Below are positions 21,501 to 59,098 of a stretch of DNA of 64,000 nucleotides, piece after piece. The notes under the pieces are model-generated. The model was given only the letters and a program-made list of their open reading frames with translations. It did not search any database and had not been told where the DNA came from. Within the stretch, counting starts at the first letter, position 1, and the number at the start of each line of letters is the position of its first letter. Origin of the DNA: Balanoglossus misakiensis (Eukaryota > Animalia > Hemichordata); the NCBI GenBank assembly GCA_040954595.2, contig CM082598.2:1488001-1552000 (forward strand). Reading direction: 5' to 3'. The translations under genes and the position numbers were made by a program.

Positions 21501-24500
21501 CGGATAGAAGCAATCATATGTAATCTGGCGTCAGAGTGTCGACTCATCTGATCCGTCTAACAGGAATAGTTCCTTGTTAAAGGGGTGTGCTCACAGACCA
21601 TGATAAATGCAAATTGTTGTATTTGACCGGAGATTATTCCCGCATGGCAAATTTCTGTAAGGCATAATATTGATCAGCCTTTCTAACTCAATATATACAA
21701 TGGCTGTTGATTGTCAGGCAAAAACATTCGATCTGCCATAGTTTACTCAAGATGGATGCCATTTTCAAGTCCACAACTCGACGATTTATATCTAGTCCTT
21801 GTTTTATAAGGTGACCTGTGATTTCATCTTTTTTCTACATCAATCATTTATATAAGTCACAAACAGTGAGAGAAAATGGGAAAACTATGTTGCATACAAA
21901 CTACTGAGCTGTGTTTAAATACGTTTGATTTCCTTTTTCAGATTTCGTCCGCTACGGAAACAGGAATACCGGTATCACAACGAGACAGTTTTATTCAGTA
22001 TGAAGACATCTTTGAGAGAGCCCACAATGCTGTGGTCTCGGAGAACAAGTCTCGCCAGGTAGAACGTGATCTGGAGGTCAGTGACACCGAGACCAGAGAC
22101 GTCGTGGAAGAAGAACTTGGAGGAATTCGGAGACTTGAGCGGTGTTATTCCACGGAGTCTTTGAGTTCAACGACCTCGGAGTCGTCGATTATAGAAAACT
22201 GTTTCAACACGTAAGTTAGATCCTGCTGTACAACAGAATAAATTGGATGAGAATTCTAACGCAAAGGGTAACTAATTTGTAAATTTAGGGCAAATACTGC
22301 GTCATTCGGCTGATAAAAACGGAAGAAGTATTGATTAACTTATATTTATATCAGTAAGAAACTGTCAAATCGATGTAGTTCGGAGAATGCAAGTGACTTA
22401 AAACGCTTCTCTGCTTAAACTGCTAGATTATTGATTGGAATATCTCATTAGTATCTGTATCGTGATAATTTGTCACTGCCCCTATTATCCTCTCAACCCA
22501 GTCATCGGCACGCGTGAAGTGGTTTTTAAGTTATCTGTTCGTTTGTAATATCATGAGCCTGTTGTTAACCAGGAATCCATCAATGCCAACAGGCGCCAGT
22601 CATTCTGACAATGTACAAATATATCCTACATGCTTAATTGTCACATTTTGTTACTTGTTGCAAATTAAAATAATCACATTTTGTTTCACATCAATACTAA
22701 ACATAGTTTTGATAGATTGATTATGCAACTGTAGACAAAAATTCTTGAGCATGCGTACTAGAGAAGCATGGCTTTTTAGTACTTTCACTATTACATGCAC
22801 AATTGCAACACAACCCCCATCTCTATTGAAAGAAGCAAGCAGACCATCATGTTCCTTTGGAAACACCTGTAACATACTCTAATACAAATGTTGAGTAATT
22901 TCCCGCTTGTTTTTGTAACTTTCTAGAATGGGTCAGATTGAAATCGTGCTGGACTACCACGCTGAACTGTCGAAACTGACAGTCACCTTAGTGCAGGCTC
23001 GTGAACTGCGATCCGTAGAGGAAACCATTGGTGCTATGGATACATACGTCAAGATTTACATACTTCCTGATTCCGAACCGAAGACTCAGTCTAAGGTATT
23101 TATAATTATATACAGTAAAACCTGTCTAAAGCAAACACCAAAGGGACTGAAGAAATTGTTCGGTTTGCAGAGGTGTCCGGATTATATAGGTTCTTTCAAC
23201 ATGTGGTTCTATGTTGAAGGGACTGGAAAAGGTGTTTGGTATAGACAGGTTTCCAGATTAGACAGTGTTCAGTTTAGACAGGTTTTACTGTATATGCATG
23301 AACACGTTTTCAGTCTTACACCCAAGATGGTATCAACAGGAAGGATTCCCCCCCCCCCCCCACCCCTTGCCAGAATATTTGTAGAGGGGGGATTATGATC
23401 CATTCTGGCAAGTTGGACTGTAATATCTCCAATGCGTGAGAGTAAGAGGCACAGAACTGTGTTAGTCGATCCTACCATTAGCCACTTAACGAATGTTGAC
23501 AGTGAGGATTTCCTGACAAGGTGCGAATACAGACCCTATCAATACTTTATTACCCCATTTTTTATCTTTATCGTGCCCCATTTTATTGCCCCATTTTTCA
23601 TTTCTATAGAGTTTTACGTGCATCGCTTGAGCTAATCCCTTGCATTACGAGCGTTCTGTGCATACAATCTGACAATGATTTTTTTCTGACACCGTTCTAG
23701 GTTTTCCGGAAGAGTTCCAACCCCGTATACAACGAACGATTCGTGCTGGATGTGCCTCGCCATGAACTTGAACACAGAGCCTTGCAATTTGCTATTTACT
23801 ATTACGACAAATATTCCAGGCATGAGGTGATAGGGGAAGCTGAAATGAAGCTCAGTGACATCGATCTCATTCCTGGGCCCTTCAGTACTTGGCTAAATGT
23901 AATGGATGTTAACGACGTGAGTATATAATCATATGATGTTGGGAGAAAATCCAATTTAAGGCAGTATGCGCCTCAGGGACAAATTTTAAGAAAATTACAG
24001 TCCTCCAAAACGTTTCATATTAAAAGTGTGAGAGGAGATCTTTTTGACTGATTTTTTTACTAAAACTTATCAGTGTTCATTCTCAGTACCTCGAACAGAG
24101 CAGGTGAATCTCAAATAACATCCATAATGATTTCACCTTAATCCACGGATTAATTCTCATCCGGTACAATTTAATCGTCTTATTGGTTGCGGGGAAAATT
24201 GTAAAACGTATACCAGATGAAGTAATTTGATATCTGAATGATACTGGATTTAAGCTGTGATTATCCAAAATTTCGGAGTTCGTCCAGTGGAATATATGAA
24301 TAATGTTGATATCGTTTCTTGTTGGTGATTTTTTTTTTTTTTGGCAACACGGTTCCTTGGGTAGTGCCACGAAAGAACAGCTTAGAACATATACTGATAC
24401 TTTAAAGTATAATGTACCCCCGCTAAAGATTAATGACTTGGTGTCCAATATATAAACTTTCCTACTTTGAAATTTTTTAACCATTACTGTGATTTGTATT

Positions 24501-37697: not shown

Positions 37698-39364
37698 TCA
37701 CTAAATTAAAGTTCATACATACTGTAGCCGTGGAGATGATACATGATGGCAAAAACAAGTCAATGAAGAAATGACCGACTCTGAACCAGAACCGTCAAGG
37801 GTACGCATGCATGCAAATACTTAATTTAAATACAAAGCCTTTCTAATCAGATTCATTGCATTCCTGAGGCTTTGACCTACATTGTTATTGTATTGTAGTA
37901 TTACAATGTACTGTGTACACACGGACATCATGTTGAGTGGAAATGAAGCTAAACACTGTCCACTGCTTTGCTCCCATGGATTTCAATGGTAAGAGCAGCG
38001 GGGAAGTGTGAATTACTAAAACCGCATCCTTTTTCATTGTTTGTCTCGTGATTCAATGCTGATTTCCTCAGCAATGGTTTTCCTATCAGCTCATCTTCTC
38101 ACTCAGGACTGGAGCTTGCAAATTGATTATCAACTGTTTTGTTTTGCATACCCATCAAGTGGGTAAACAAAGAGGTTTCACAAACAACAACAGTCAAAGA
38201 AGATTGGCACTGTGTACATCCACAGTGGGTCAAGGCCAGCCCAGCAGTATAGGTATTGTTAATGAGGTTTGACACGTACACACAGACAGTGATACATCCT
38301 ATGCCCTACTTACATACAAGGAAGTGAAGTGTGCTCTCTTTGACTGTTGTTGTAAAATTGTTTGTCACTAGGGCTGTAATGTTTTGGTATTTGTAGTTTG
38401 GGGCATCACAGCCCAGTGGCCAGAACAGTGGACTTCAATATTTTCTGTCATGTTTAATCATAGAAATAAAAATTGTGGAAGTATGCATGAACATGATTTA
38501 CAGTAATAGGCATGTAGGTTAGGACTGTATTAGTGGAGAACTTCAAAGGTTTCCAAACACACAAAGTATGCAGGCTAGATAGAAATGCACAAAATGTTCC
38601 TTGCCTTAGAAGGAAATGTTGGTCATGGACATGATCAGTGACCTCACAGTATTTCAAATACAAGGACATGATAAATGATTGTGTGCATTGACCTTGTCAC
38701 TCATTGGACAAGATCTTGCATATTTTTATTCCATGTCATTACGCTGTTTTGCAACAATGCTGACTCAACGTGGAGTGATAACCTGATTAGTCTATATCGC
38801 TGGGGTCATGTTCTTTATCATTAGAACAGAGATTTCGATCTTTTCGCACATAAGTGCTACAATCTGCATGTGAACTATATAAGAGCTGGGAGGTATTTTC
38901 GATGACGACACAAATATATTTTTACTGCTATGCCCAGCTTCCAGTGTCCGTCTGCCAAGACGTCACATCGGCCAAGCATGATTGTGTTTACGCTATAAAC
39001 GTCACGTATATATTATTACTCACTGAGTTATCATCGATGAATTTGAAGGTGATATCGGGTCGTGTTTTTACACAACCGAAGACACAGACTGGTTAGCGTT
39101 GAATCTTTCTGGTTACCGTAGGAGAAACTTTTCATAGCATAGGTTCATCGGAATTGGATAACGACGATAGTAATCGACATCCCCCGAATCATGCACCATG
39201 TACATTACAATCTGGGCTACCGTACTGCGACGTAATATCTACTGCACACCCCCAAAACACGTCAAAATACCAATATTGCCAGACGACTGACGGTCGATTC
39301 AATGGTCTGTTAGACCCTACAGATACCACATTACCTCTACGTGATATTAAAATCAAATACTTAC

Positions 39365-39452
39365 GAACACTTCAAATTTCTGAAACGAATTCTCGCGACA
39401 CTGGTCACGGTGACGCCATCTTGGATACCTCTGGCGCGATGCTTTGTGGGAT
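39365..39452 (-). promoter_or_regulatory. Putative BTBD10 promoter and first non-coding exon (YY1-type CAAGATGGCG, ZNF143-like TCCCACAAAGC)
   Basis: Minus-strand donor TTC|GTAAGT (exon end 39365). CAAGATGGCG at 39423-39414 opens the uORF MASP*. TCCCACAAAGC lies just upstream. CpG-richer surroundings. Confidence 0.5.
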
Positions 39453-40215
39453 AGGGACTGTGTCGGTAAGTTTCGGATTAGTTCCCGAAGACCCGAAGTG
39501 ACAGGCGTGTCCCTGGGCCAAATGCATTAAAACGCCTTACATCTATACACAGTCCATCGTGGTATAACTGGTCTCATCTTAAGGCCTAATATCCACAACA
39601 AGGAAGGGAAGTCAAAAGCTTTGCTGATGATAAAATAGTATGATTGATAAACATCAAAATGCTAAGGATAAGAAACTGGACTCAAACCGAAATGTACTAA
39701 ACTGAGGTACATTATTTGAAAACTCTTATTATAACCAGTAAAATTGGAACTCAGTCATTGCCAAACTCAACGAAACATCTTTAATGTCTTCATGTGCAAT
39801 TTATGTCCTGTGAGAAATCTAAGTTATGCGCAGTGTCGGTACGTCACCCCTGGGCCTGTTTCTAAGTTATGACACCATGACAGCTCTCAGTGATAAGTTG
39901 CGACAACGCACGCACGTAGGCACTTGCAGGACCGGCCCAAATCTCGGGTAAATGAATTCTGGGGCCGGTCTATGATACCGCAAACAATAGCAAGATAAAT
40001 GTAGTATAGCAAACTGGTTTGCATACATTGACATATCTATCTACGAACAATTCGTTTTTCTGATCGCTCCATACCTGTCTCCGGGCAACGGGACAATGAC
40101 GACAAAGGCCGGGCAATGAGCGTGGGCTTCTAACGGGGATGACGGGGTCAGAGGGTTTAACATTGTTCAAATACTTGTGTGTGCGACTAAAGCATTGTAT
40201 ATCTGCGGGTCCATG

Positions 40216-40417
40216 TATATAGGCGACCGCGTGGGAAGGGCATACGCACCTATGTCTTAAAACCCGGCCGTCGCGTCACTGAGTCCTGATAATTGCAATT
40301 ACACGCTCGGCTTTGTCTCGACTATCATGGACGGACGCGCATCCAGCTGAAATATCGCGGATATGCCGATTAGGCCTAAATCTTATCGGTGACACAGCTG
40401 AGGAAAATAGGCCACAG
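40216..40417 (+). promoter_or_regulatory. Putative promoter and 5' non-coding exon of the deaminase-like gene
   Basis: CpG-rich stretch with TATATAG near 40217, consensus donor CAG|GTAAGT at 40418 and a matching strong acceptor TTTCTCTTTTTCTGTAG at 41545-41561. Confidence 0.45.
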
Positions 40418-41617
40418 GTAAGTTACTAAGCACAACAGTTTACAATAGATTTCGTCTGCCTCTGTAACCAGTGACTTCGTGACACAGTGCAAATCTTCTA
40501 GTGGTAGGCCTATACCACAGACTGACCCTCCGGACAAACTGTCACTGAAATACTCCGAATCCTGTATATTGTTTGCAAACTGAACAAACTGTACAGCGGC
40601 AACACAACTTTAATCTACTTTGGGCAGTGTAAAAAGCGTCTAATCGCTCTGCACGGTTGACAACTGTCGCTGACAGTCAATTTACCGTCTCTCCATATTA
40701 TATTCTCTACGTACAGCAGAATTTGGCCACAAGCCAAGATGTATTTCTACGTTTTTTAGCGACAACCTGGTGAATCCCTGAAGTTATAACACAAATCTTG
40801 ACTTATGCTGCCTGCCCTGGTCTCCACCGCGCCATTGGGCCAAAACCACGTCTTGTTGAATAAGCCAAGTATTAATTTTCCTGTGCAAACCCAGCCATAT
40901 CAAATTAACTCTGGGAAGAAAGGTTATTGTTAAACAGCAATTATTTAATCGGTATGTTTACCCGTAACGTAAAGTCCAAATCCCTTTGTGTCCGCGCAAT
41001 CAGAACACAGCTTTACAATTGTTCAAGCAACGACCACTGTTACTTTTTTCAGACCGCGAGATATTTCAGTAATTTGTGGGATTCAATTATGTTCTCGACG
41101 GCCAAAGTGGAAGACGCAGTCGCGCCAAGACGAACGTTTATCAAGGGCGCTGTTATATTGACACGCATAATGTTCTTTCCATGGCGAGGATCGAGTGGAC
41201 TCAGCTATGCATTGAAACTTTGTCACGAAACATGTCAGAACATGTTTTGTTTGGAGCATATTCAATACGTTTTCTCTATGTCGATTGATTTCATTGTTTG
41301 CAGTCACATTATACGACCCCGTTTATTTCTTTGGTGGCCATATCTAGCATTGCAGATTAGTCAAAGTTCAATCCTTGAAAAAAAATACTTTACTACGAGC
41401 ACACGCAAAAAGTTATTACATGCGTTTGGCTGACACACAGAGAGAGAGAGGGGGTGGGGGTGTGATTTCAACCAAATAGAACGTTTGACGGAGCGGGGAC
41501 AAAATTTAAAAGACAAAAAGTTAAATGCGAACCACTTATACCAATTTCTCTTTTTCTGTAGTGAAAAAACACAGACTTTCTGCCCAGATAATTAAAGACT
41601 CCCATCCGTCCGACAAG

Positions 41618-43348
41618 ATGATGCTGCGACAAGCTTCGATATCTTCGGATATCATCGCGTCCGTGAATCCTCAACACCCGGCAGGGGGACACGAATCCGG
41701 CCGCAACATGCGCGTCGTAACCATCGAGAAACCAATCCTGATTTGGAACGGGAATCTTGAGGGTCTCTACTACAGGGCTGAAGATTGCTCAATGGATATG
41801 TATTTGAATAAGTATACTTACATGAAGGGGGATAGGAGAATCTACTCTAAGCGACACATACATGAGGTTCTCCAGGAAATCTGTATAAAAGCCAGGTACA
41901 AATTGGATGACTCCCTCGATATGAAAGAAAGAGGCGATGGTAATCTTTGTGTCGCTGCTTTGGGCGTGATAGCGGAGAAAAGAGCGACGGAGCGGTCAGA
42001 CTCGCAGCTGGTGTATCTGTGCGCTCCCGTTACCATGAAACAGAACGGCGGTCGGAGCATGAAATTAAGCGTCAAATCCGAGCCCGGTCTTGCCCAGAAC
42101 TGCAAAGAAGCAGTGTTCTGCAACAAGCAAGAGTTGGTGGAAATCAGAGACGTGTCTGACGACCCAGAATTCTACTTTGTCGGTCGGGACAGGGCCCTGG
42201 CTACCCGGATTGAGAGGTTGAAACGGCGCATGACGAAAACGCTGATGAACGATGAAGAAGATAAGTCAGGGGAAGATGGAGATGATCTTGCGAGCGAGGA
42301 TCGTGACGATGAACCGGTCGTTTATGAGGAACATCTCTCAGAGAACGAGATTGAAGAAGGAAACTTTCTGACGGACAGTTTCAAATCCATGGCGCTTGAT
42401 GATAGCTGGTACACAAAGAAAGCTATCAAGGATTTTATCAAGCAGTTGCCGAGAACTGAATTCAGAGAATCGGCTGATATCGTCAAAGCGAAGTGCTACG
42501 CAGGGAGATTTAGCGACTCTGGGTTATCTTTCTTCATGGTCAACGGTGAACAGCTGAAACATTTCTACCAGTCTGAACAGTGGTTCTTAGAGGCGTTGAG
42601 GATGAACCCCGACCTGCCAGCCGAACTCCTACGAGAATATAAAATCAATCCGGCGAAATTTGAAATACACGCCATCATGCTTGAGATACACAGCGAACGC
42701 GACATCTGCGGGAATTGTCAAGACCATTTACACAGCTTAATAACCGACAAATCTCCGGACAATGCCATCAGAGGCGGGTTCAAGAGCTCCCTGCAGAGGT
42801 GGGGGTACAGTGTCCACTGCGCTGATCTACAAATCGGTGTGCGCGTGTCTTCACGTATGAGCAACAAGTCGGGTGGCGAGCAACAGAGAGAATGCGGTTG
42901 TCCGGACAAAGTGCCGAGACCGTTCCCTACAGAAGACACGGCAGTGCAAGATCTTATGCAAAATGGCGTCATCCTGGCACATCGGTTTGTACCGATAGCT
43001 TTCTACGACCGACAGGGCAGCAAACTCCCCGCCTGCGCCATGACAGACTGCAAGACCTGCATCAGAGACGAGAAAAACTTTCTGGTGGAGATCGGCAAGA
43101 AACTGCAAGAGATGATCTTGACTTCCGGAGTGACTGAAAACGAAGACGCCGAGGGGGAGAAAACCGTCGTACTGGACGTTCGAGACGATGTACTTGGAAA
43201 CACCAGGCACGCATGCCCATCTTCCACAAACACATTTTGTTCGTACAACTCATTGACGGCCTATGCCAGACTGGATATCAAGACAAAAGTCTGCAAGGGT
43301 GTTAAACTATACCTCACCTCATACACAACAGATAAAGTTAGTCCGTGA
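41618..43348 (+). CDS. Uncharacterised single-coding-exon protein (~576 aa), putative zinc-dependent deaminase-like fold
   Basis: Uninterrupted ORF 41525-43348; the acceptor at 41561 makes ATG 41618 (AAG ATG ATG) the likely start. Motifs GNLCVAAL, HFYQSEQWFLEAL, IMLEIHSERDICGNCQ and LQIGVRVSS. Coding status is well supported; the fold call is inference. Confidence 0.75.
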   Translation: MMLRQASISSDIIASVNPQHPAGGHESGRNMRVVTIEKPILIWNGNLEGLYYRAEDCSMDMYLNKYTYMKGDRRIYSKRHIHEVLQEICIKARYKLDDSLDMKERGDGNLCVAALGVIAEKRATERSDSQLVYLCAPVTMKQNGGRSMKLSVKSEPGLAQNCKEAVFCNKQELVEIRDVSDDPEFYFVGRDRALATRIERLKRRMTKTLMNDEEDKSGEDGDDLASEDRDDEPVVYEEHLSENEIEEGNFLTDSFKSMALDDSWYTKKAIKDFIKQLPRTEFRESADIVKAKCYAGRFSDSGLSFFMVNGEQLKHFYQSEQWFLEALRMNPDLPAELLREYKINPAKFEIHAIMLEIHSERDICGNCQDHLHSLITDKSPDNAIRGGFKSSLQRWGYSVHCADLQIGVRVSSRMSNKSGGEQQRECGCPDKVPRPFPTEDTAVQDLMQNGVILAHRFVPIAFYDRQGSKLPACAMTDCKTCIRDEKNFLVEIGKKLQEMILTSGVTENEDAEGEKTVVLDVRDDVLGNTRHACPSSTNTFCSYNSLTAYARLDIKTKVCKGVKLYLTSYTTDKVSP

Positions 43349-45596
43349 AAGTTCCCGACTAGAGAATTCTTATACATAAGTACAAAATGTACACCTATAA
43401 GATGTAGGGAAGTAACCATCTTCGCATGCAAGGCATGTTTACACACATTCATACGGGTTACAAACACATACATAGATATGCAAAGCACACTAAATATAAA
43501 CGCAATTTTATGAGAAAAAAACTCACGTTTTACTACGAAAACCCATGTGCGTCTGTTTGTAGTGAGTTGCCAAATCTTGTCAAACTTTAGTCTTTTGTAT
43601 ATTAATAGTCGAAATATTGGGAATGGACTAGAATGAATGTGAATGACTTTACTTTTATCAGATGTTTCTTAATTTATAGTTTGTGTTGTTACCTTTGTAG
43701 GGCCTATAACTTTTATACCGCGATAGGCAGGTACCCCCTGGACTTTCATCCACCAGAACCATCCAGCTTTACAAGGTGTAGACAAGATGATAGAGTTCTC
43801 AGGTTCTATATTGACAGAAGGTGAATTGGAATTAGAAATATAATGTTTGCACCAAACATTACGCAGCATTTAAGCATCAAACGCAAGCCGTATACACATA
43901 TCTGAAATTTACACTAACGGTGCGATTCTTAATCTTTATGTAGGAGTTTGTCTTCACGAGTAGTAGAACGACAATACTTACAAAGCATATGGCAGAGGTC
44001 AAAGGTTAGTTGTGTCCGACACACACATATACATGTACGCCCGTGAAACTCATCCAATATTTGTTCATGAAAGCTTTAACTTTTGCTTGTACACTTAACT
44101 GACACTTAAATCGAACTTAAAGGCGAGTTTTAACAATTTAAACAACGAATTTCGTACTTAATCAGCGCCGTAATACAGAAAAAGTACTTCGCAGATAGAT
44201 CATTGTATGTTGGTTTATTGATGCTTCCTCCAATTTGTTGTAGAGATATGCGCCCTCAGCGACAGAACTACTCGGTCTGTTGTTTATACGTACTTATATC
44301 TGTATGTGAGTTTGCAACGAAAATAGGATTATTTTTATAACGTTGTTTAGCTACTGGAAGTGTCTAACACTGTTTTTGAGTGAATCTGTTAATAAAAGTT
44401 GGTTCTAATGCAAAAACTGTTCTGTTCAGTAATTATTTTTGAGTACAATATTATTGGTTCTGTTTTATTATAGTTCTCAAATAAAAATTTCATTCAAATT
44501 AGGAACCTTCATGGTCAATACATTGTTTGAATTCCTGTATGCATAGAGGGCAAAGCTTGGCATTTTAATGACAAGGCAAACATATAAAGTAAACATTCAC
44601 TGTGTATCTTTATTTTCCATACAACTAAAACTGCATGAACTCAACAATGAGAGCGAAGTATGTTGTATGTAACCTTTTTTTTAAAAGTCATGAAGCTCTT
44701 TGTTACATTCAATGGAAGTACTTGATCAATTGTACATAATTTTATATGAAATTCTAAAATATCCCCATTTGTATAGTCAACTTCAGGATATATAAATGCT
44801 TTGAAAAATATTAAGCGGTCTAATAAATTTCCACATAATTCTTTATGTAATGTTTCTGGTTCCATGATCTATTTTACTTTGATTATTCAAATCTTGAAAC
44901 AATTTCGCTTCAAATTTGGTTAAATCATATATAAATCACATGCATGCAAATAAGTACATGTACATGGCATTGCTTAACATAACTGCAAACTCATAAGTAT
45001 CTGAATACTTAATAACTGTGTAAACATTCTTCTAGTACTATGCCTGGTGTTTTTCTCTCTGTAAACATGATTTACTGATTTGAGAAGCACAAAAAATCTT
45101 TCTGTAATTTAGACACTACTATTCTTTGGAGTTGTAGTGAGTATTTGATTTTAGCAGATTTGTCCTGTAGTTACATGTGTAAAATCTTGCTCCTATGTTG
45201 ATACACAGTGATTGTGTGTATAACTATGACAGGCAAACACTACCCTTGACTATCCCCATATGTTCAATGCAAAAAACATCACATTATGGCTAAACACATT
45301 CTGAATATTTGAGTAAAATATTCTTTAAAATCTTCATATTTGTATCATCATATATACAATCTGCCCAGAATGAAATCAACTGATTAGCTTCATTTAACTA
45401 TCATCATAATTCAATGTTCAATGTAGTACAGAAGACCCCCCTCCCGACCCCTCAAAAAGAACAATTGATAATTGAGGAAACAACATCTTTCACTATGACA
45501 ACAACCTTTGCCTACTATTGCCAAGGCCTCATCCCAACTCAGAAATCTCAACAATGACTGTTTAAAATAAAATGAGAATAGTATCCAGATGGCCTC

Positions 45597-53253: not shown

Positions 53254-55137
53254 ATGACAGCATCACCAACCCGTCAGCGAGGCACGGGCACCATACAGGA
53301 AAAGACCATCTACGAAGTGTCCGAGTTCCTGGATGAAAAACTGAACAGAATAACAACTTACTGGAAAAATCTGAAAGCCAATTATGTCCATTTTTCGTCT
53401 TCCATCACATTAGCATATTCATTAAGTACATCTCCACGAGGTCTCGATGGAAACTTCTCAGAAGTGACGTCATTGGAAGACGTGATGAAGTGCTACGACG
53501 CTGTCAAGAATCGGCAGTTCACAGAAAGTGCTTTCGTCATCAGCACTTTCTTGCACACAGTGACGGAAATAAAGCAACTTTATCAGGAGGTGGAAAGATA
53601 TCGACCGACTTTGGTTGCAAGTCAGGACAGTAATAAAGCTCGGTATGTCCGTGAGTTCTGCGTCGAGTTGGAAAACTGGAGAAAGATGGTTGAAGGCTGC
53701 CTGGTCGCTAAAACTGTACATCCAGAGGTTTTATCCTTAACAAATGATGGAGACATCCAGAAACGTACAGGTCGTGTGTTTAGTGTCATACCTGTCATGC
53801 TGGACCATGCAAACTCTCTAATTAGAATTATGAAGAAAGGTTGGCCACCCAGGTTAGACACGGTACTACAACGCCCCCGCACGGCGTACATGTTAACCTC
53901 CCCGCGTATGAGCCGTTCTGCATCCATGACATCGATGCAGCCGCTCTTGCTCAGTGGCAAATCCGCGAAAACTGAGTGGCGACCGGCAGATGCGGTTGTC
54001 GGCGGGCAGACGGCAACCGAGACACTGCGCAAGTCGAAGTCCACACTCGGGTTACCGTCGCTGGAAACTGGAGCGGCTGGCTCCGGAAAGCGAGGATCAT
54101 CAGTCTGCGATATCGATGATGAAGCTCCCTTATCGAGATGCAGCAGTCCGTGGAGTACGTCAAGTGCCTACGAAACGGGACCGAATTCGCTGTCACGTGT
54201 GACCATCACAAATTCAAATGTTACAATATCATCAGGCAGTGAAGCAGATAGCTCGCAGTGGTCGCCTATTGACAGCTGTAAACATCCAATTGTAAAAGAA
54301 ATCACAGGTGAGCAAACATGAAGACACAGTTTTCTATTTTAGTGCACGAAACAATCATATGAAATTATCACCCGTTACACTGAAAACCCAACTTCAAAAA
54401 AGATGTTATACTGATTATAATATTACATGGGTCCGATATGAAGCAAACATTCCTTTGTTTGTGGTTATTTGGTTATCAGAGGTCCTTCAGTCCAAATTCG
54501 ACCAAGAACTTGACAAGGCCACAACTCGACTGGAGAAGAAGATAACAGACGCCACTGACACCTTAAGAGAAGATATACAGCACGATCTTAAGAAGAGAGA
54601 CAAGAGAATTGATAACATCAAATCTGATGTCGACCAGCTGTCGAAGTTTGTGGACGAAAAGTTCTCAGATCTCGATACTGAACTGTTAAAGCTTGATGTA
54701 TTTTTAAAAGGTTGGTTCTGTGTGCTTTTATAGCGTATGCATGCGTATATATGAATTTATGAATGGATGGATGGATGGATTGATGGATGGAAGGATGGAG
54801 GGACACTTCAGCAAGACTGATTTAAAAACGCAATCCTTTGATTTCAGATTACATCAAACCACTGGATGACGAACAGATACAGGTGATTGGTCAAAACATA
54901 GGTCCGCACGTGTACCCGAAAATGGCCAGAGCTCTCGGCATCAGCCAGACACAGATGGAGTGGATTAAAGAGAAACACAAGGACGATGAACAGGAAGTAG
55001 TCATCGCCAGTTTGCATAAATGGAGAAAAGCGTCGGACAAGCGCAAGGCGACCTTAGAAACAGTTATACGGGCGTTGGTGAATAATAATGAGCGCCAGAC
55101 AGCCAATCAAATTCTACGTGCATTTAAGGAGGAATGA
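53254..55137 (+). CDS. Uncharacterised death-domain protein A (~524 aa): helical N-domain, Ser-rich linker, coiled coil, C-terminal death domain
   Basis: Exons 53254-54307, 54480-54710 and 54848-55137 (both introns phase 1, GT-AG). 5' UTR acceptor at 53232, upstream donor CAG|GTAAGT at 52565. Last exon has a typical DD pattern: IGQNIG..KMARALGISQTQMEWI..EQEVVIASLHKWR..ATLETVIRALV. Confidence 0.85.
54761..54799. repeat. (GGAT)n microsatellite in a gene A intron
   Basis: Directly visible. Confidence 0.8.
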
Positions 55138-57136: not shown

Positions 57137-59098
57137 ATGGCGGCTTCGCCCAGACTTCGTCCGGTCACGTGGACAATACAGGAACAAACGATCCAAGAAG
57201 CGGCTGCATATCTCGGTGAAAGACTGAACAAAATCACCAATGATTGGAACAGTTTAAAAACAAGCTACGTTCACTTTTCATCGTCCATCACATTAGCATA
57301 CCCACTCTGCACGGCCGCACAAGTTCACGGCTACCCCTTTTCTGAAGTGACGTCGGTACAAGACGTCCAGAGTTGCTATGAAGCTATGGTGTGTAAAAAC
57401 TACACTGAAAGCGCCTACGTCATTGACACGTTTCTCCAGAGAGTGGAAGAGTTGAAACAAATGTATCGTGAGCTGGAAAACTGCAAGCCGACATTGGTAG
57501 CAAGTCATCATGACAGTAAAAACGTGAAAAGAGCTCGCTTCGTCCGCGATTTCTGCGTTGAGTTGGAAGTGTGGCGAAAGATGATTGAACATGACGAAGT
57601 TGCTGAAACGGTGCACCACGAAGTACTGTCGCTTACTGGAGACAAAGATGTACACAAGCGCACAGGTCGAGTCTTCAGCGTCGTTCCCGTCATGCTCGAC
57701 CACGCTAATTCTCTGGTTGAAATAATGAGCAAAGGATGGCCACCACGTGTGGATGGCTTATTACAGCGCCCGCGCCCTGGCACTGGATGCATATTGAGTA
57801 CACCTCGACTTGAGCGCTCGCTGCAGGCAGAAACTCTAAAACCATTGACACTTGACAAGAGCCTCAAAACAATGCGACCACGAGATGCACGACAAACAAC
57901 TAAGACTATATCTCATTCAAACTCTATGATACAACTACCATCGCTTGGGAATATTGCTAAACGCGAATCTATCTCGGATGACGATGATGACGGGCCGTTG
58001 TCGTCCCGATCGGTACGAAGTACTCGGTCTTTCAGTTCTTCCAGCGCCTATGAAACCGGACCGCCTTCGCTCTCTCACGTCTCCATCACAAACTCAACCG
58101 TGACGATCTCAAGCGACACAGAAAGTTCTCAGTTGTCACCAATGGACAAGCGTCCTATCGTCAAGGAAATCACAGGTGAGTTTTAAAATCTCAGTTCGCC
58201 GTTGGTGGTGCGCTATATGCGATGACTCTGGTCCGACGCTGCACTGAGCAAAACAAGTTTCTGTTTCTGTCCTATATCAGTATTTTTGTGATTCCCAAGT
58301 AAATGTTACCCATCGTGTTTTGCGGTTGATCGACTAACATGCCTTCCACTTTTCACAGAGGCCCTTCAGTCCAAATTCGACCAAGAACTTGACAAAGTCA
58401 CAACTCGACTAGAGAAGAAAATAACAGACGCCAATGATTCCCTGAGAGAAGATATACAGAACGACCTTCAACAGAGAGACAAGAGAATTGATAAAATCAA
58501 ATCGGATGTGGACCAGTTGTCGGTGTTTGTGGACGAAAAGTTCTCTGATCTCGACACCGAATTGTTAAGAACTGATGTGCTGCTAAGAGGTTCGTGTACA
58601 TATACACCTATCGAATTAGTAATATTGATAATTTTACTGAAGAGTGACTAAATTGGTGAAAGAATTGACTCACCAGGTATTTACTATCGGTAAAGTTAAC
58701 AGCGTTGTATTTCCTAATGTTCACTCCCAGAAAAAGGGACAATTTATTTCCAAAATATTTATTGAAATGCATGATTTACTCATCTTCTTCTGTATTGTCG
58801 TTTGACAGATTACATCAGACCACTAGATGACGAGCAGATACACGTGATTGCCCAGAATGTCGGTCCCAAGGTGTACCGCAAGATGGCCAGAGAACTTGGA
58901 ATGCGACAACCACAGTTGGAATGGATTCAACAGCAGTACAGGGATGACGAACACGAGGTCGTTATCGCCATTCTGCACAAATGGAAACAGATAGTAGGCA
59001 TGCGCAAATCCACCCTAGAAACGGTCATCCGGGCGTTAGTGAAGGTCGACGAACGCGAGACTGCAAATCAAATTCTTCGCGCATTCAAAGAAGCCTAA
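57137..59098 (+). CDS. Uncharacterised death-domain protein B (~519 aa), tandem paralogue of A
   Basis: Exons 57137-58175, 58359-58589 and 58809-59098. The last two exons have the same lengths (231 and 290 nt) and phases as in gene A. Shared blocks: YVHFSSSITLAY, FCVELE.WRKM, KRTGRVFSV.PVMLDHANSL, PIVKEITG. Confidence 0.87.

Follow-up and report, generated by a model that had tools for sequence, protein, structure and literature searches.

A predicted zinc-deaminase-fold gene in the acorn worm Balanoglossus misakiensis, with homologues in amphioxus and possible bacterial relatives

Each known lineage of editing or mutator deaminases in eukaryotes is thought to be derived from a bacterial toxin, as described in PMC3239186. 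Host-directed deaminases are reported from Wolbachia, Orientia, and Rickettsia, and eukaryotes are described as having captured such enzymes more than once (PMC3239186, PMC3482391). One of the recognized groups, the Helix-4 division, includes TadA/ADAT2-3, AID/APOBEC, OTT_1508, and XOO_2897, and both inactive members and endosymbiont effectors are known within it (PMC3239186, PMC3482391). According to a 2023 paper, amphioxus has no identified homologue of AID/APOBEC (PMC10354150), and neither amphioxus nor acorn worms are named in the main text and supplement of a 2018 survey of animal AID/APOBEC-like deaminases. The gene family presented here occurs in both groups of animals. The supplement of PMC3239186 might list a member. 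No paper naming the five accessions searched was found, and a search of titles and abstracts gave nothing on the family. It is likely an undescribed deaminase family of invertebrate deuterostomes that lies outside the curated clades.

The window analysed is a stretch of 64,000 nucleotides from Balanoglossus misakiensis. At 41618-43348 on the plus strand it contains one unbroken reading frame, from ATG to TGA, that encodes a protein of 576 aa in a single exon. The stop-free frame around this coding sequence (CDS) is the longest in the window at 607 codons, followed by frames of 421 and 370 codons. It is not a chance frame, since whole-length orthologues are encoded by three other acorn worms, and 41618-43348 is almost certainly a real, conserved gene. 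The orthologues start at the second ATG (41621). The initial annotation had described an uninterrupted orphan CDS among split neighbours. The frame and the multi-exon neighbours are as it described, but long exons are not unique to this gene (two coding exons of ~1.06 kb are at 53254-54318 and 57137-58183), and the gene is no orphan given the full-length orthologues of Ptychodera, Glandiceps, and Saccoglossus and the amphioxus homologue. The four motifs that it listed are in place: a strand at aa 108-117 (nt 41939), QSE at 42569-42577, CxxC at 42707-42718, and a strand at aa 404-412. Its open reading frame numbers equal the protein positions plus 31 (aa 139-148 become 108-117, and Q349 becomes Q318). 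Q318, E320, C364, and C367 are on nt 42569, 42575, 42707, and 42716. The apparent 5' UTR intron that it had proposed can be predicted at 40418-41561 on the plus strand from sequence motifs alone, with a GT donor at 40418, a pyrimidine tract, and an AG ending at 41561. Candidate polyadenylation signals (AATAAA) are present on the same strand at 44391 and 44480 (44391-44485).

The upstream neighbour is a multi-exon gene of the BTBD10/KCTD20 type on the minus strand (Pfam BTB_3, E 1.3e-8), which appears to be head to head with the deaminase-like gene. The downstream neighbour, tail to tail on the minus strand, is multi-exon cortactin (HS1_rep, E 2.7e-27). A minus-strand splice donor at 39364 suggests that less than 1.1 kb separates the first exon of the BTBD10-like gene from that predicted for the deaminase-like gene. 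These genes may share a two-way promoter at 39364-40417. The GC content of the CDS (0.49) is like that of the other exons of the window (0.48-0.53), so there is no sign of a recent transfer. The CDS has an observed/expected CpG ratio of 1.03, and the intron of the gene has one of 0.96. A CpG-undepleted domain (ratio about 1.0) extends over 39000-44500, covering the promoter region and the entire deaminase-like gene, and sits between the CpG-depleted gene bodies of the BTBD10-like gene (0.37) and cortactin (0.39). In the usual reading of invertebrate methylation, a CpG-undepleted gene is unmethylated and more likely to be regulated than constitutive. The deaminase-like gene would more likely be of this unmethylated, regulated kind.

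Other genes are present in the window. Tandem paralogous genes are found on the plus strand at 53254-54733 and 57137-58651, and the two long exons mentioned above are their first coding exons. They are 56% identical over 363 aa and have a weak match to SPACA9 (E 0.017 and 0.00027, both below the cut-off). After each long exon comes a further exon, which is similar in the two genes and probably encodes a coiled coil. At 21870-23398, the plus strand carries exons of a C2-domain (synaptotagmin-like) gene (Pfam C2, E 1.3e-4).

Homologues of the 576-aa protein were found by several searches. A word-index search yielded two proteins from 7656 candidates, the full-length orthologues of Glandiceps talaboti (79% identity) and Saccoglossus kowalevskii (69%). 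A profile search added the orthologue of Ptychodera flava (XP_070539128.1), which is also 576 aa and is 83% identical. A full HMMER search of 1.84 billion representative proteins returned four homologues: the Saccoglossus protein, a 160-aa ENA fragment (87% identity), a 612-aa protein of the amphioxus Branchiostoma belcheri (E 6.6e-22, 32-36% identity), and a 185-aa metagenomic protein (E 1.2e-9). The profile search missed the amphioxus proteins of its own query alignment, so absence from other phyla is weak evidence. Several of the homologue genes have more than one accession for an identical protein, which suggests transcript-based gene models. No relevant match to the protein was found in Pfam, NCBIfam, PHROGs, or PADLOC, and the PDB sequences gave no match to single-sequence or profile queries. 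GTDB genomes, JGI metagenomes, and IMG/VR gave no related loci, which carries little weight as near-exact short patterns were required, and a phage search gave no match.

Pairwise identity among the acorn-worm orthologues is 67-83%. This is unlike the fast-evolving immune deaminases, and a role as a defence factor, as first suggested for this gene, is unsupported. In the four acorn worms, 59 of 96 core positions are invariant, as are 56 of 74 positions in the poorly modelled N-terminal region (aa 1-74, 41618-41839, plus strand) and 72 of 116 in the C-terminal region (aa 461-576, 42998-43345, plus strand), while the acidic tract has only 10 of 58. The conserved N-terminus of all animal members carries an R-x-x-S motif (41624-41644, plus strand), which we take to be a possible phosphorylation/14-3-3 site. 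The C-terminal region is modelled as a helix and beta-meander domain and has weak matches in the full-length model to pseudopilins and ParE/CDI-type chains (Z 3.7-5.0). It contains C473, C478, H531, C533, and C541, which, with H455, are common to acorn worms and amphioxus and form a candidate second metal site. The proteins of acorn worms and amphioxus are thus alike on both sides of the core, the C-terminal Cys/His residues included, and this sharing favours a single old acquisition.

Two of the related sequences have features of their own. A second product of Ptychodera flava (XP_070539405.1, 265 aa) matches the full-length protein at all but one residue and ends before the catalytic half. 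It is a truncated second copy, a haplotype, or an assembly error. The ENA fragment, on a contig of 583 bases, is 87% identical to aa 327-451 and continues into unrelated sequence, possibly a read-through intron in another acorn worm. If it is an intron, the CDS is not single-exon in every acorn worm.

The fold of the protein was explored through AlphaFold models. The full-length model was poor (pLDDT 43.6). In a VIA search of the PDB with it, deaminases still made up 20 of the best 50 rows, aligned within residues 78-461. The model of residues 75-465 had a pLDDT of 58.7, a pTM of 0.64, and core blocks with a pLDDT of 68-92. When it was compared by VIA with 48,161 PDB representatives, deaminases filled all of the top 25 rows and 34 of the best 50, and the alignments to them cover the whole split domain. 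The top 25 rows have a Z of 4.0-5.4, an rmsd of 3.5-5.1, and 90-136 aligned residues. ADAT2/3, TadA, dCMP and guanine deaminases, APOBEC3, AID, RibD, and DddB are among the top deaminases. Several other rows among the best 50 are FdhD, RadC, BRCC36, and ATIC, which share the fold. A few entries we take, from their titles, to be deaminases or related proteins. When 984 Foldseek candidates were re-aligned, the best 50 rows were all deaminases, led by APOBEC3G (Z 5.8, rmsd 3.8, 113 aligned), although a Z of 5.8 or less, as obtained throughout, is in the range that the structural-search tool calls common. Foldseek by itself, against the PDB and BFVD, gave nothing at E<=0.001 and placed APOBEC3G at rank 3-4 (E 0.3-0.5). 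In the ESM Atlas, all five rows shown for the window protein, unnamed clusters aside, are deaminase families, at scores of 0.75-0.78 that are below 0.9 and the recognition threshold and serve as leads. All nine rows shown for the metagenomic homologue, unnamed clusters again aside, are deaminase families as well. As a lead, the nearest of these are the bacterial toxin deaminases, with 0.87 to PF14424.

The model contains the alpha/beta core of the zinc-dependent deaminase superfamily, from helix 1 to strand 5, with modest Z values. Helix 1 and strands 1 and 2 are at aa 79-143 (41852-42046, plus strand), with the first strand motif at aa 108-117, and the structural alignments begin in this block. 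A partly acidic insertion of 173 aa follows at aa 144-316 (42047-42565, plus strand), as judged from the model and conservation. Helix 2, strand 3, helix 3, and strands 4 and 5 are at aa 317-456. Within this part, Q318-S319-E320 is encoded at 42569-42577 (plus strand) and provides the position of the first zinc ligand and the invariant Glu of catalytic type. Strand 3, S359, which is invariant, and C364-x-x-C367, where helix 3 starts, are at 42674-42718 (plus strand). Strand 4 (aa 404-412), a loop with helices, and strand 5 (aa 452-456, low confidence) are at 42827-42985 (plus strand). Helices 419-425 and 440-449 are placed between strands 405-412 and 452-456, where the pLDDT is only 36-56. From the model, the protein very probably has a deaminase fold that is split by the 173-aa insertion. 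With modest, tied Z values and no significant match from Foldseek by itself, the fold has support and no clade is singled out.

The residues of the active site differ between lineages. Of the 6 lineages with sequence covering position 318, 4 have His there: Ptychodera (HAE), Saccoglossus (HSE), amphioxus (HPE), and the metagenomic homologue (HSE). The His-form orthologue of amphioxus is XP_019631782.1. Position 318 is Gln (Q-S-E) in the Balanoglossus misakiensis copy and in Glandiceps. The [H/C/D]-x-E motif expected at the start of helix 2 is thus present in the family and absent from these two. Gln318 is not an error, since a second genus shares it. No homologue spanning the sites E320, S359, C364, and C367 departs from these residues, and C364 and C367 are at the start of helix 3 (365-376) as expected of the CxxC motif. 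The His is dispensable in the Gln lineages, which are two genera that are otherwise ~80% identical. High conservation around Gln318 indicates that the protein is under constraint and the His is not. In a phylogenetic tree, the Balanoglossus misakiensis copy is grouped with Ptychodera (90/91), and a clade of Balanoglossus misakiensis and Glandiceps is not rejected (p-AU 0.122), so the change from His to Gln could represent one or two events. In SsdA, the equivalent His both ligates zinc and stacks on the target cytosine, as described in PMC12494967, so Gln318 should weaken both roles. The copies of Balanoglossus misakiensis and Glandiceps are probable pseudo-enzymes, and we take the pattern to mean that the protein, at any rate in the Gln lineages, serves in binding and has residual catalytic activity or none. 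The retained E320 and CxxC are equally what an active enzyme would show.

These results agree in part with what the initial annotation had drawn from the letters of the DNA. It proposed a deaminase fold with a large acidic insertion, which is borne out by the model, the structural searches, and His318 in 4 of 6 lineages, and a pseudo-deaminase, which fits the two copies in which Gln replaces the His ligand. It had picked the right residues, as His318 in relatives and the invariance of E320, C364, and C367 (its E351, C395, and C398) indicate. The S-E-R-x-x-C-x-x-C motif that it noted holds for S359, C364, and C367, but E360 and R361 vary among the homologues. The toxin clade implied by this motif was not confirmed. 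The structural search that it proposed favours deaminases in 25 of the top 25 VIA rows, but with a Z of 4.0-5.4 and without a Foldseek match at E<=0.001. Horizontal acquisition, which it raised, is plausible from the strong metagenomic homologue and a borderline homologue from Rickettsiales, but the direction of transfer is not given by the tree.

The 185-aa metagenomic protein scores 74 bits with a profile built from the animal sequences only, whereas the best of 2000 shuffles reaches 7.3, and from its sequence it is firmly a homologue. It is without the acidic tract, stops after strand 5, and does not have the animal C-terminal domain. No longer relatives of it were found. A tblastn search with it returned one record in 72,556 plasmids (E 0.8), UCM94758.1 on a plasmid of Ca. 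Megaira. This bacterium belongs to the Rickettsiales and lives as an endosymbiont in an alga. Plasmid searches with the Ptychodera, amphioxus, or Megaira sequences gave no further match. UCM94758.1 is an uncharacterised, effector-like protein of 862 aa (gene L001:3162-5750, 7 cluster members) with a deaminase-like domain at its C-terminal end. Its N-terminus has a weak RickCE-like match (Pfam E 0.016, below the cut-off), and by its pattern it presumably contains an ankyrin-like repeat. Near its C-terminus are an H-S-E helix, a helix, a strand 3 that ends in Ser, a Cys pair, and a helix, which is the order of the family, with 34% identity over 80 columns. It differs from the family in six extra residues between the two Cys, a shorter insertion, the RickCE-like N-terminal region, and the lack of the animal C-terminal domain.

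The hhalign comparison of UCM94758.1 with the family gave an E of 6.5e-5 and a probability of 64%. The score is 19.9 bits when the metagenomic homologue is in the profile (best shuffle 7.2), which is not independent of how the protein was discovered, 12.7 bits with the animal-only core profile (reached by 0 of 3000 shuffles), and 9.9 bits with the full-length animal-only profile, which is under the best shuffle (11.5). Four of five segment profiles gave no support. A by-eye match of its helix 1 and strand 1 to the animal family was unsupported by the segment profile and was not counted. PF14424 and PF14441 were not found in the Ca. Megaira plasmid. No paper joining Megaira, deaminase, effector, and plasmid was found, and a term search of two papers related to Megaira returned no mention of a deaminase. 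With these borderline statistics, UCM94758.1 is probably homologous to the animal family, and its similarity hints at an origin from an endosymbiont effector. Origin of the animal family from a bacterial effector is somewhat favoured overall. The tree of eight sequences has no starred branch, long branches, and no outgroup, so it cannot give the direction of transfer.

The best explanation, to which we give a probability of about one half, is that the family belongs to the zinc-deaminase fold and came from a bacterial host-directed effector, and that the Gln copy binds nucleic acid and has weak catalytic activity or none. The block of aa 79-143, with helix 1 and strands 1-2, would pack with the elements of aa 317-456 into one deaminase domain around the 173-aa insertion. 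By the chemistry of the superfamily, the His, C364, and C367 of the His-bearing members would hold zinc, E320 would shuttle a proton, and a flipped-out base would be deaminated, most likely a cytidine in single-stranded RNA or DNA. The Glu, Ser, and CxxC kept in the Gln form would still make a base-binding pocket. DYW domains have a gating domain of 55 residues at the position of the insertion (PMC7611903), and in dCMP deaminases an insert at the same position is described as a cap that restricts access to a soluble base (PMC3239186). By analogy with these, the insertion with its acidic tract may cap the pocket. A role in the choice of targets or partners is possible for the C-terminal Cys/His domain.

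It is rather unlikely that the Balanoglossus misakiensis copy is instead an active cytidine deaminase of RNA or single-stranded DNA, with an atypical Gln-x-Glu/CxxC zinc site in which the Gln oxygen or a nearby His is the third ligand. The Gln-bearing copies, too, keep E320, S359, C364, and C367, the core is well conserved (59 of 96 positions in four acorn worms), the first ligand can be H, C, or D across the superfamily as described in PMC3482391, and H358 is kept in all animal members. However, Gln is missing from the ligands listed in the classifications of PMC3239186 and PMC3482391, the nearby H315 is missing in Glandiceps, also a bearer of Gln, and H358 is Asn in UCM94758.1. Deamination of a free base, nucleoside, or nucleotide by the family, with a cap that admits only a small substrate, is improbable. 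The dCMP, guanine/guanosine, and triazine-type deaminases are among the tied top structural rows, and the dCMP deaminase insert limits access in this way, but the metabolic enzymes tie with tRNA deaminases and APOBECs. There is also no sequence match to these well-modelled metabolic families, and the patchy distribution and the effector-like bacterial relative would fit nucleic-acid-directed clades better.

Vertical descent has a similarly low probability. In this case, the family would be a highly diverged offshoot of an AID/APOBEC-like or ADAT2/3-like protein, its relatives in other phyla would have been missed by the searches, and the bacterial resemblance would be due to chance or to reverse transfer. 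The helices modelled at low confidence between strands 4 and 5 would be as in the Helix-4 division, APOBEC3 and ADAT entries have high structural ranks, and the statistics for UCM94758.1 are borderline. The lack of matches in other phyla carries little weight here too, given that the word-index search missed amphioxus proteins in its own query alignment. Against this are the absence of the AID/APOBEC signatures (strand-3 W and SxS before PCxxC), the metagenomic homologue that scores 74 bits and stops after strand 5, lacking the C-terminal domain of the animal proteins, and the Atlas lead (0.87) that sets this homologue nearest the bacterial toxin deaminases. The least probable reading is an unrelated zinc-binding alpha/beta protein, with motifs and a low-confidence model that mimic the deaminase fold. 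No Z is above 5.8, there is no Foldseek or sequence match, and the alignments hold only 8-9 sequences. However, nearly all deaminase clades of the PDB fill the top ranks with two separate models, and H-x-E and CxxC each mark the beginning of the helix where they would be expected.

The preferred reading, a deaminase-fold family of effector origin, would add an unlisted deaminase lineage in the invertebrates most closely related to vertebrates. For C-to-U editing in acorn worms and amphioxus, the family is a candidate that can be tested directly, and it offers a new scaffold for base-editor screens. The natural His/Gln pair, in orthologues that are ~83% identical, could serve as a model for the transition from deaminase to pseudo-enzyme. 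A more far-reaching picture is tentative. Acorn worms and amphioxus, neither of them with a reported AID/APOBEC gene, might possess their own lineage of nucleic-acid-editing cytidine deaminases, captured once from an effector of Rickettsiales type near the base of the deuterostomes, with a gating insertion, a second zinc domain, and switching between His (active) and Gln (silenced) forms.

The family can be compared with several known groups. The JAB/MPN metal site of E, HxH, S, and D, as described in PMC3482391, is absent, and here a single strand-3 His is followed by CxxC. JAB chains rank below the deaminases in the VIA rows. The BURPS668_1122 / BaDTF2 clade (SsdA; PF14424) has RxxDxExK in helix 2 and CxxCxS according to Table 1 of PMC3239186, and these are absent here, as is the SGW motif; PF14424 was not matched. 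In comparison with this clade, the acorn-worm protein has a much larger insertion, extra helices, and extra N- and C-terminal regions, and it is encoded by a single conserved animal gene. The feature at aa 144-316 agrees with a trait of the clade, but it is common to several other clades and is not diagnostic. AID/APOBEC proteins have a strand-3 Trp and SxS before PCxxC in the same Table 1 (PMC3239186), which are absent here, and there was no Pfam match. The GxxK that precedes CxxC in OTT_1508-like proteins is also absent, and PF14441 was not matched. Plant DYW proteins differ in that the acorn-worm protein has no PPR array, HxEK, or terminal DYW zinc motif (it has x-S-E-Q-W), has Ser in place of Asp at the end of strand 4, and has an insertion of 173 aa rather than about 55 residues. 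DYW chains of the 7o4e type were not among the VIA rows listed. The motifs that define the BURPS668_1122, DYW, AID/APOBEC, and OTT_1508 groups are absent. The Helix-4 division gives the best structural rows (Z 4.2-5.8), and a helix is predicted at low confidence in the region where that division has helix 4, which lies between the parallel strands 4 and 5. The PCxxC proline, SxS, strand-3 Trp, and GxxK signatures of its clades are missing. ADAT3, the usual pseudo-enzyme, loses the Glu. The Balanoglossus misakiensis copy shows the opposite, with the Glu retained and the His lost.
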